Positions 10,526-12,292 of a stretch of DNA of 64,000 nt are shown here, piece by piece (position 1 is the stretch's first letter; every line of letters begins with the position of its first letter). The position numbers were made by a program, and so were the translations under genes. Source of the stretch: Acutalibacteraceae bacterium. Lineage in GTDB: Bacteria; Bacillota; Clostridia; Oscillospirales; Acutalibacteraceae. The notes under the pieces were generated by a model, which was not told the origin of the DNA, did not search any database, and saw nothing but the letters and a program-made list of their open reading frames with translations. The stretch covers positions 65,558-129,557 of the forward strand of contig JAZUCC010000003.1 in assembly GCA_045638965.1 (NCBI GenBank), read 5' to 3'.

Positions 10526-12292
10526 TTAGCAGCAGCAATCCTTTTTCTCGTCAGGATATGTGCGTCTTTCAATTTTTGCGCCTACCAAAGTAAGCTTGTC
10601 AACAATGCTTTCATAGCCTCTGTCAATGTAGTGGATGTTACCGATTGCGGTTTCACCCTCTGCGCAGAGTCCTGCAATAATCATTGCCGCACCCGCTCTT
10701 AAGTCATCGGCTACAACATTTGTGCCCTTGAGTGTTTTTACACCCTCAACCACCGCAGCGGTGTTGCCTGATTCAACGGAAATGTTGGCACCCATCTTCT
10801 GAAGCTGCTGGGTGTATTTGAAGCGGTTGCCCCATATTGCATCGGTAACCTCGCTCTTGCCGTCGCAGATTGTAAGAAGTGTGGTGAACTGGGGCTGCAT
10901 GTCTGTGGGGAAGCCGGGATAGGGCTTTGTGCGGAGATTGCAGGCCTTAAGTCTGCCGTCGGAAATAACTCTTACGGAGTCACCGCCCTCTTCAACCTTA
11001 CAGCCGCATGCACGCAGGCGGTCTGCAATTGTATCAAGATGCTGGGGAACAACATTTACAATGGTGATGTCACCGCCTGTTGCGGCAGCGGCTACCATGT
11101 ATGTGCCTGCTTCTATCTGGTCGGGAATTACTTCATGGTTTATAACCTTGTTTTCCACATACTGAAGCTCGGGCTTACCGTAAATTTTAATGGTATCCGT
11201 ACCCGCACCTCTTATGGATGCACCCATACGGTTAAGGAAGTTTGCAAGGTCAACTATGTGAGGCTCACGGGCAGCATTGTTTATGGTTGTTGTACCCTCT
11301 GCAAGAACAGCCGCAAGCATGATATTTACCGTTGCACCGACTGAAACCGTGGTGAAGGTGAAGCTGCTGCCTATAAGCTCTTCAGCCTCAACGGAAACCA
11401 CACTGTAGTGGTCATTTCTCTTCTTGGGAGAAATTGTAACGGAGTTGTCGGGGCATATTGTAATCTGCTCACCCATGGAATTGAGATGCTCTGCAAGGCT
11501 TATAACCTCGTTGTCTGTAAGAGCGTTTCTGATAACAGTTCTGCTGTTTGAGTGAAGAGCAGTGAGAATGTGGTCTGCAGTGAGAAGCTTTGACTGGTCG
11601 TCGAAGATGATTTCCGATGAGAAATTGAAATCGTCACAGTCGGGAATGCAGCCGTCAATTGTTATAATGCGGTCATCCTCATCATATTCAATATCTGCCT
11701 TGTTGTTGCTGCGGAGAATTTTGAGAATATCCTTTATATGCTCGTCAATAAAAGCATTTCTGATAACCGTTGTACAGTTGGAGTTTATTGCAGTAAGAAC
11801 TGCATTGAGAGTTGATGCAAGTGAGGGCTGCTGAAGCTCAACCTCGATGCTGCCGAGAACAGAGGTCTTTGCGCCGAGGGTCTCAAAGCCGTCAAGGTGG
11901 AAGTTGATGGGGCGTCTGCCGCCGAAATTACAACCGCCGGGCATTGCAACACGGGCAAAGCGGAATCTGCCGAGCATTGAGCCTAAAAAGTAGTAGGATG
12001 CTCTGAGCTTTCTTGAAAATTCGTAGGGAATTTCCTTTGATTCAACATTTGTGGTATCTATCTCAAGTGTTCTTCTGTATTTACCTGTGGAGGTAGTCTT
12101 GACCTCGGCACCAAGGTAACGGAGAATGTCTATTATAACGGAAATATCGGCAATGTCGGGAACATTATCTATAAAATACTTGCCTTTTATAAGAACTGTA
12201 GCAGGGAGTATAGCTACAGCGGAGTTTTTAGCGCCGCTTATCTCTATTTCGCCGGAAAGACGTTGTTTGCCTGTAATAACATATTTTTCCAC
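10526..12292 (-). CDS. murA: UDP-N-acetylglucosamine 1-carboxyvinyltransferase (MurA) carrying a ~150-aa internal insertion
   Basis: [23 protein letters not shown] and catalytic-loop PGGC, plus [38 protein letters not shown] and [13 protein letters not shown]. The protein is 588 aa; B. subtilis MurAA, recalled from memory, is 436 aa. The extra segment is aa ~146-294. Confidence 0.85.
   Translation of the reverse strand: [588 protein letters not shown]

Follow-up and report, generated by a model that had tools for sequence, protein, structure and literature searches.

The stretch of DNA analysed here (64,000 nucleotides of contig JAZUCC010000003.1 from an Acutalibacteraceae bacterium; hereafter the window) carries a murA gene whose product contains eight copies of the folding unit of its family. 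MurA is an essential enzyme and the target of fosfomycin, and its textbook fold is built from six copies of one small unit. Firm support was obtained for a tandem triplication of one β-α-β-α-β-β unit, with the adjacent downstream unit as parent, that stayed in frame and gave an eight-unit enzyme. We put the probability of the overall architecture and evolutionary account of this eight-unit MurA at roughly 0.85. The gene and its parts are as follows.

10526-12292, minus strand: murA coding sequence, 588 amino acids (aa) plus stop, GTG start; a long-form UDP-N-acetylglucosamine (UDP-GlcNAc) 1-carboxyvinyltransferase.
11411-11860, minus strand: insertion of 150 aa (aa 145-294) relative to canonical MurA, in the turn of the β3-β4 hairpin of the second unit of the Cys-loop domain, corresponding to E. 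coli E139-G141.
11645-11851, minus strand: extra folding unit A, aa 148-216; hhalign E 8e-13 to the parent unit; predicted strand-helix-strand-helix-strand-strand.
11624-11644, minus strand: linker between A and B, aa 217-223, directly after the invariant Gly214-Cys215 and within the low-confidence segment 215-225.
11423-11623, minus strand: extra folding unit B, aa 224-290; hhalign E 7e-16 to the parent unit; predicted strand-helix-strand-helix-strand-strand.
11171-11371, minus strand: parent unit C, aa 308-374, the canonical third unit of the Cys-loop domain, with the SVGAT UDP-GlcNAc-binding motif and helix α2 'DLANFLN'.

Profile comparison identifies the open reading frame (ORF) at 10526-12292 unambiguously as MurA. 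Pfam PF00275 (EPSP_synthase) matches the 588-aa protein at E 4e-91 (306 bits), and the protein scores 542.9 bits against TIGR01072 (cutoff 392.7) and 559.6 bits against NF006873 (cutoff 297). With TIGR01356, the model for 5-enolpyruvylshikimate-3-phosphate (EPSP) synthase (AroA), it reaches 79.9 bits, below the cutoff of 287. Of 59 HMMER matches among PDB sequences, the top 32 belong to MurA chains 411-458 residues long. Since the N-terminus lines up with the N-termini of canonical MurA proteins, the GTG start is credible. The HMMER match to C. difficile MurA (6q03) is split, residues 6-142 aligning with residues 2-144 of the query and residues 145-417 with residues 295-575; the excess thus forms a single clean block, aa 145-294, which begins directly after the equivalent of E. 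coli L138. We aligned 118 homologues, comprising 103 of canonical length and 15 long forms. The insert columns hold ∼ 148-150 residues in the 15 long forms, fewer than 10 in 102 of the 103 canonical-length sequences, and 10-19 in the remaining one. Apart from a chance-level match (0.21), EPSP_synthase was the only Pfam family detected in the window MurA, and the insert shows homology to the MurA unit next to it; these sequence comparisons rule out an intein or a foreign domain.

Both halves of the insert match the unit that follows them. With the window sequence alone, BLASTP aligned each half to aa ∼ 309-374 at E ∼ 2e-5. Smith-Waterman alignment of each half against the rest of the protein gave z = 7.9 and 8.8, with none of 2000 shuffles reaching the observed score, and the best matches of both halves fell on this one downstream unit. 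Profile-profile comparison, built from the alignments of the 15 long forms and the 118 homologues, gave E 8e-13 for the first half and E 7e-16 for the second; the next-best full-unit matches, to other units, had E ∼ 0.003-0.07. In a near-gapless alignment of the units, A and B are 26-51% identical to C and 15-21% identical to the four other canonical units compared. Identity to C is highest, at 45-51%, in the least-diverged subclade, where for example unit A reads ...ANIEGAGTSTIKIAG and unit C reads ...ADIKGAGFPDGTIKITG. Because A, B and C are roughly equidistant, either a single triplication or two quick successive duplications fits. At the DNA level one repeat links the two new units:

11513-11568, minus strand: DNA repeat D1, copy in unit B; 56 nucleotides (nt), 75% identical to 11744-11799 at a spacing of 231 nt (77 codons, in frame).
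11744-11799, minus strand: DNA repeat D1, copy in unit A, at the homologous position in that unit.

Judged by its sequence and frame, D1 is a leftover DNA trace of the tandem duplication linking A and B. No significant DNA similarity among the copies was found beyond D1, and Tandem Repeats Finder detected no DNA tandem repeat in the gene. With almost no DNA similarity left between the copies, the event is therefore old and not the product of an assembler. We propose two tandem duplications, or one triplication, of the third unit of the Cys115-loop domain, with a period of ∼ 75-77 codons, in the ancestor shared by the members of a small clade. Read against canonical MurA, the new units A and B lie in a surface hairpin just before the parent unit; they are predicted to fold as two further units of the same kind on an intact six-unit, two-domain body, and they are kept by purifying selection.

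Structure prediction is consistent with this proposal. AlphaFold2, run on the 118-sequence alignment, gave a full-length model with a mean predicted local distance difference test (pLDDT) of 85.4 and a predicted template modelling score (pTM) of 0.77. In this model DSSP assigns strand 149-152, helix 158-169, strand 175-178, helix 184-195 and strands 200-204 and 209-213 to unit A, and strand 225-229, helix 234-246, strand 251-255, helix 261-272 and strands 277-280 and 284-287 to unit B. The canonical part of the model superposes on solved MurA structures with template modelling (TM) scores of 0.92-0.95 (target-normalised) and, in the best cases, a root mean square deviation (rmsd) of 2.7-2.9 Å. 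The model thus keeps the six-unit, two-domain body whole and predicts the extra units as additions to it. None of the PDB matches is a solved MurA with comparable extra units. A model of the insert alone (pLDDT 72.9, pTM 0.44) reproduced the two units, and all 36 of the PDB matches that it retrieved at E ≤ 0.001 were MurA or EPSP synthase chains. Set against the family plan of six units in two domains and ∼ 420 aa, the window protein has the six canonical units but comprises eight units and 588 aa in all. This is a departure in architecture, with no loss of a defining catalytic feature.

The catalytic machinery is conserved. Residues were mapped against an E. coli MurA sequence that passed all landmark numbering checks.

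11912-11944, minus strand: catalytic loop, aa 117-127, in which C121 corresponds to E. coli C115 and R127 to E. coli R120; the PGGC Cys, the residue behind fosfomycin sensitivity, is present and invariant.

E. coli K22, N23, R91, C115, R120, D305, D369, R371 and R397 correspond to K22, N23, R97, C121, R127, D464, D530, R532 and R558 of the window protein. None of these catalytic and substrate- or phosphate-binding residues varies in the 118-sequence alignment, the 15 long forms included. In the window's own subclade the equivalents of E. coli D123 and K160, residues near the UDP-GlcNAc site, are Asn (aa 130, 11903-11905) and Thr (aa 315, 11348-11350). The long form is most likely still a working, catalytically competent MurA.

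A sequence-only reading of this DNA had described a 588-aa MurA ORF with intact PGGC Cys and other active-site motifs. It had placed all of the excess in one block at 11411-11857 (aa 146-294), and had seen in it two segments that echo the canonical unit, implying an internal duplication and an eight-unit enzyme. The family profiles and the nine mapped residues bear out the first part. The block was right to one codon, and its unity is confirmed by the split match to 6q03 and by the 103 canonical-length homologues that lack it. The echo proved to be homology at the E values and z scores given above, and the two extra units of the AlphaFold2 model agree with eight; the internal duplication can now be refined to a tandem triplication of the adjacent downstream unit.

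Several smaller features accompany the insert. In the window's subclade a second Cys stands four residues after Cys215, giving a CxxxC motif (C-I-P-D-C, aa 215-219, 11636-11650). A conserved Cys-Cys motif ends the long forms of two of the three subclades (P0002-P0012; ...DCCC, ...CCNQ, ...PCCG, ...DSCG; aa 585-588, 10529-10540 in the window) and is absent from the third (g3, below) and from all short forms shown in the detailed alignment. It could be a metal or disulfide site, perhaps pairing with the insert cysteines. The window's subclade also carries a further insertion of 5 aa that directly follows the parent unit, where the chain passes to the next domain (aa 378-387, 11132-11161); the other two subclades and the short forms lack it. 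Here a stretch of 25 nt (11131-11155) matches 11491-11515 in unit B with 80% identity, 360 nt away (repeat D3); this resemblance of short sequences is probably due to chance.

A full-length search covering 5.8 billion clustered proteins found 15 long-form clusters (90% identity clusters) of 570-589 aa with 64 member sequences. All other matches listed are 418-492 aa long and without the insert, the insert columns having been checked in 103 of them. The window and P0002-P0008 form one subclade, g1 (87-100% identical); g2 (P0009-P0012) and g3 (P0013-P0015) each share 55-57% identity with the window. Those clusters that were looked at one by one derive from NCBI, ENA, JGI and Logan assemblies, and the named records are plain 'UDP-N-acetylglucosamine 1-carboxyvinyltransferase' entries of Ruminococcaceae, Oscillospiraceae or Clostridia bacterium metagenome-assembled genomes (MAGs). 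Carriers of the long form include GCA_045652065.1, GCA_045635905.1, GCA_964440255.1, GCA_052830305.1, GCA_015066205.1 and GCA_054274515.1. A word-index search with the 150-aa insert alone returned no match, a false negative, since the same database contains a 100%-identical full-length entry; empty results of this index for short or unusual queries are not reliable. It was replaced by an exhaustive HMMER search with an insert profile against 1.84 billion 50%-identity representatives. In this search the whole insert was matched by a single representative, P0012 (E 2e-83); the next match (E 1e-15) and the others among the matches listed are ordinary-length MurAs or fragments, found via the parent unit. 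Extra units were absent from all six over-length matches inspected, including the two longest, and no seven-unit or nine-unit relative was seen in the exhaustive search or among the inspected over-length matches. Two candidates for an independent unit duplication were rejected, P0159 (548 aa) as an N-terminal extension and P0167 (554 aa) as a chimeric or mis-called ORF, and a candidate intermediate, L005 (a 458-aa match with 43% identity), turned out to be an ordinary MurA of 432 aa.

In a bootstrapped tree of the core alone, from which the insert columns were left out, all long forms fall into one clade (100% bootstrap) and g2 and g3 group together (93%). Monophyly indicates a single origin of the long form; this origin and the confinement to one narrow clade of uncultured gut Oscillospirales are firmly supported. 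The searches also answer the sequence-only reading, which had asked how widespread the insertion is: it is not a common or described variant. We found no description of a MurA/EPSP synthase family member with extra folding units in the literature searched, and the eight-unit MurA is rare and apparently undescribed, a departure in architecture within a known family.

The genomic setting identifies the long form with the ordinary gene. Two upstream neighbours served as anchors:

12509-14710, minus strand: glycoside hydrolase family 78 (GH78) α-L-rhamnosidase, upstream syntenic neighbour and orthology anchor.
14729-16768, minus strand: RecG helicase, upstream syntenic neighbour, orthology anchor and rate reference.

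We examined seven long-form loci from all three subclades (the window, L084, L085, L087, L088, L001 and L086). The gene order is RecG, GH78 rhamnosidase, murA, a conserved protein of 320-360 aa on the opposite strand, and two AMP-dependent ligases; the RecG-rhamnosidase-murA part is common to all seven, and the downstream part is visible in the five whose contigs reach that far. A scan of a genome collection with the conserved pattern FPTDMQPQ yielded, among the matches listed, canonical MurAs of other species, two of them informative short-form loci. L004, a Clostridia MAG from sheep rectum, keeps the RecG-rhamnosidase-murA-orf324-AMP-ligase synteny with a canonical MurA of 434 aa, and its flanks (RecG 76%, rhamnosidase 80% and AMP ligase 90% identical to the window) are as similar to the window as those of long-form genomes. 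In L032, an Acutalibacteraceae MAG that is less closely related, RecG and the rhamnosidase are likewise followed by a short MurA. Because L004 and L032 carry a short MurA in this place, the long form is the positional orthologue of ordinary murA and the short form is ancestral at the locus.

Some neighbouring genes deserve mention. In L004 an extra gene of 333 aa (7595-8596), α/β-hydrolase-like by eye, lies between murA and the orf324 homologue and is absent from the window and the other long-form loci that reach past murA; its presence may mark recombination at the locus. The 324-aa neighbour of the window gene (9269-10243, plus strand) is conserved and convergent with murA in six related loci that reach past murA. 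It has no Pfam match and begins with a hydrophobic N-terminus ending in Cys (...FSTSC), followed by a Thr/Pro-rich stretch, and by these features looks like a secreted protein or lipoprotein. Further away, the sole Pfam match of a 3108-aa ORF (46403-55729, plus strand) is one Listeria-Bacteroides repeat, and ORFs near it at 40342-43152 have a Listeria-Bacteroides repeat or a Big_3 domain; this is probably a cell-surface protein cluster.

RecG provided a yardstick for the divergence of the MurA core. Identities are as follows.

Within g1: MurA core 91-96%, RecG 74-88%.
Between g1, g2, g3 and L004: MurA core 60-66%, RecG 71-77%.
L004 versus L032: MurA core 84%, RecG 59%.

The ratio of non-synonymous divergence (dN) in the MurA core to that in RecG is 0.30-0.55 in ordinary comparisons (within g1; 0.32 for L004 versus L032) and, unexpectedly, 1.3-2.0 between g1, g2, g3 and the syntenic short form. 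The excess change is spread over all six canonical units and is not clustered at the insertion site. Among the 162 positions with a conservation of 97% or higher in short forms, 132 are unchanged in every long form. Two readings fit the excess, an episodic burst on the stems after the triplication or an exchange of old, divergent murA alleles at the locus. A burst of core substitutions might reflect co-adaptation to the new architecture or to altered partners.

Several of our results weigh against a simple account of an ordinary MurA with two added units. The long-form core has diverged 4-6 times more than RecG predicts, yet is tightly conserved inside subclades. The NF009470 equivalog cutoff of 552 bits, which the syntenic short form L004 exceeds with 595, is narrowly missed by the full-length window protein (545.8 bits) and by its core with the insert removed (532 bits); as far as profile scores go, the core-only value leaves room for a changed role. 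At the position equivalent to Listeria MurA N197 (discussed below) the copies have K/S/A in unit A and E/D in unit B. The copies are not simple extra ReoM sites, because this Asn is kept in neither. The models are also less certain in the insert than in the body: pLDDT in ten-residue blocks is moderate at ∼ 49-89, the linker at 215-225 is poorly predicted, and the insert modelled alone matches any pair of MurA units with a TM score of only ∼ 0.35 at an rmsd of ∼ 16 Å. Each extra unit is predicted to have the fold of a MurA unit, and the models give no reliable geometry for A relative to B or for the insert relative to the body. The sequence-only reading had asked whether structure prediction would show an extra lobe: the insert is predicted as two MurA-fold units, neither disordered nor unrelated, and at these scores (pTM 0.44 for the insert alone) a discrete lobe of defined geometry is only a possible arrangement.

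The excess core change bears on an alternative in which a second, canonical MurA elsewhere does the housekeeping and the long form, released from constraint, is a sub- or neofunctionalised copy, specialised as a stress or sporulation enzyme, as a partner or decoy of IreB/ReoM, or for altered substrate handling. Core-to-RecG ratios of 1.3-2.0 in place of the ordinary 0.30-0.55 would suit such a copy, as would a core-only sequence under the NF009470 cutoff and the Asn and Thr at the D123 and K160 equivalents of the window's subclade. Most Firmicutes have two MurA homologues (PMC12077105). However, the long form occupies the exact slot that canonical MurA has in related genomes, its catalytic residues are all invariant, and the core is under strong present-day constraint, with a ratio of non-synonymous to synonymous substitution (dN/dS) of 0.03-0.06 among five g1 genes. 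The K160-equivalent position is variable in ordinary short forms too, and no second MurA-like sequence was found within the 64-kb window. We regard a specialised copy as possible and doubtful.

Rates in the insert itself speak to a different proposal, that the triplication took place in a permissive surface hairpin and that the units fold independently as harmless, tolerated passengers with no function of their own. The site lies in a surface hairpin outside the active site, and each unit is a self-contained predicted fold. Insert dN is ∼ 2-4 times core dN within g1, and the insert of the window's subclade is 35-46% identical to those of the other two, compared with 62-63% for the core. Among the same five g1 genes, however, insert dN/dS is 0.06-0.13, and the insert is therefore under clear purifying selection. 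Its length is steady at ∼ 148-150 aa in all 15 clusters, and neither partial deletions nor seven-unit forms occur in these clusters, whose RecG diverged by ∼ 25%. The insert proper has 32 invariant positions, most of them also structurally conserved in the parent unit (TT.I..A, the hydrophobic core, glycines); they include the Gly-Cys at the A/B junction, whose Cys215 occurs in every one of the 15 long forms. Some of the constraint might be mere selection against misfolding. On balance, a pure passenger seems unlikely to us.

The preferred reading of a selected, eight-unit MurA invites the question of what the extra units do. Our suggestion, which is tentative and which we would not ourselves favour at even odds, is a specific functional role in which they form a non-catalytic surface appendage that changes the access of partners to one face of MurA. 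By inference, the extra units would take no part in catalysis and might alter protein access to the face that regulators and inhibitors use in other MurA enzymes. In Listeria, the MurA substitution N197D, made with a primer encoding DLA[N>D]FLNQMGA, leaves activity unharmed, whereas ReoM binding and degradation by ClpCP are lost (PMC8959180). Listeria N197 maps to helix α2 of the triplicated unit, and the window protein keeps an Asn (N351) at this position in its parent unit. An IreB/ReoM-like gene was not found in the 64-kb window, a weak negative with the queries used. The insertion point also coincides with the site of the E. coli MurA substitution L138Q, which reportedly gives resistance to the Qβ lysis protein A2. 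The ReoM contact and L138Q are leads for function, not evidence.

A more specific version, in which the extra units make up a third functional lobe on the catalytic-loop face that acts as shield or decoy against a MurA-directed protein (a phage 'protein antibiotic' or IreB/ReoM-ClpCP), appears improbable. If it were true, the 4-6-fold core excess would mark an arms race over an essential antibiotic target, and this would be the first natural enzyme of the MurA/EPSP synthase fold to gain a new surface by re-duplicating its own repeat unit. As a rival to our account it takes the form of an anti-inhibitor shield, a lobe that blocks docking of an inhibitor or degradation adaptor (a Qβ A2-type lysis protein or ReoM/IreB-ClpCP), with the core change as antagonistic co-evolution. 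The insertion point does directly follow the equivalent of E. coli L138, the reported site of A2 resistance, the triplicated unit bears the ReoM-contact residue of Listeria MurA, the core divergence is episodic and in excess, and the insert is strongly acidic in the window's subclade (net charge -13). No inhibitor is known for these bacteria, however, A2-type inhibitors of MurA are known only from a coliphage, and the excess divergence lies over all units and not on one face; we consider the shield very unlikely. Finally, although all sources are MAGs, an artefact (a misassembly, a repeat wrongly collapsed or expanded, a gene call with a frameshift, an intein or a mobile insertion), of which the sequence-only reading had itself raised misassembly, is effectively refuted by the same architecture in 15 clusters and 64 member sequences, drawn, where examined individually, from the four assembly sources named above, always in frame and with 55-92% identity between versions, by copies that are ∼ 30% identical in protein with almost no DNA identity and so beyond an assembler, and by an insert that is homologous to MurA itself with only EPSP_synthase in Pfam.

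An eight-unit MurA that arose by triplication and is kept by selection would show that a closed repeat architecture can still grow by its presumed founding process. It also offers a concrete case for protein evolution and design of how two extra units can be attached to a closed three-unit barrel, and it is unusual in itself that a core which normally evolves slowly shows such a burst of change. In practice the reach of the finding is limited, since the carriers are a narrow group of uncultured gut bacteria.

Compared with canonical MurA (C. difficile 6q03; E. coli 1uae), the window protein is alike in family score, catalytic residues, predicted inside-out α/β-barrel core (TM 0.95) and chromosomal slot. 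It differs in having eight units and 588 aa where canonical MurA has six units and ∼ 420-435 aa, and its core is only 61-63% identical to the nearest short forms, though genome relatedness predicts ∼ 90% or more. In the control of MurAA/MurAB by IreB/ReoM and ClpCP in Listeria and Enterococcus (PMC8959180, PMC12077105), the unit that bears N197 is the one triplicated here. A tie between the insert and this pathway is something we can only infer from that likeness. The insertion adjoins surfaces that control MurA degradation elsewhere (ReoM/IreB-ClpCP) and, reportedly, sensitivity to a phage lysis protein, and it may point to a new means of adjusting or shielding the first committed step of cell-wall synthesis. 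NikO (4fqd) shares the fold and is longer than MurA (479 aa), but it is a distant match to the window protein (E 1.6e-38, 20% identity in the structural alignment) and without unit duplication. A further parallel is the origin of the fold itself. The enolpyruvate transferase (EPT) fold of MurA, EPSP synthase and RNA cyclase arose by repeated duplication of a β-α-β-α-β-β unit that resembles the C-terminal domain of translation initiation factor IF3. The ancient duplications led to two closed three-unit domains, whereas here two units were added to a domain that was already closed, and for this reason they cannot complete a three-fold barrel on their own. It is the same module that was duplicated in tandem, and the eight-unit MurA looks like a recent re-run of the process presumed to have built the six-unit fold.

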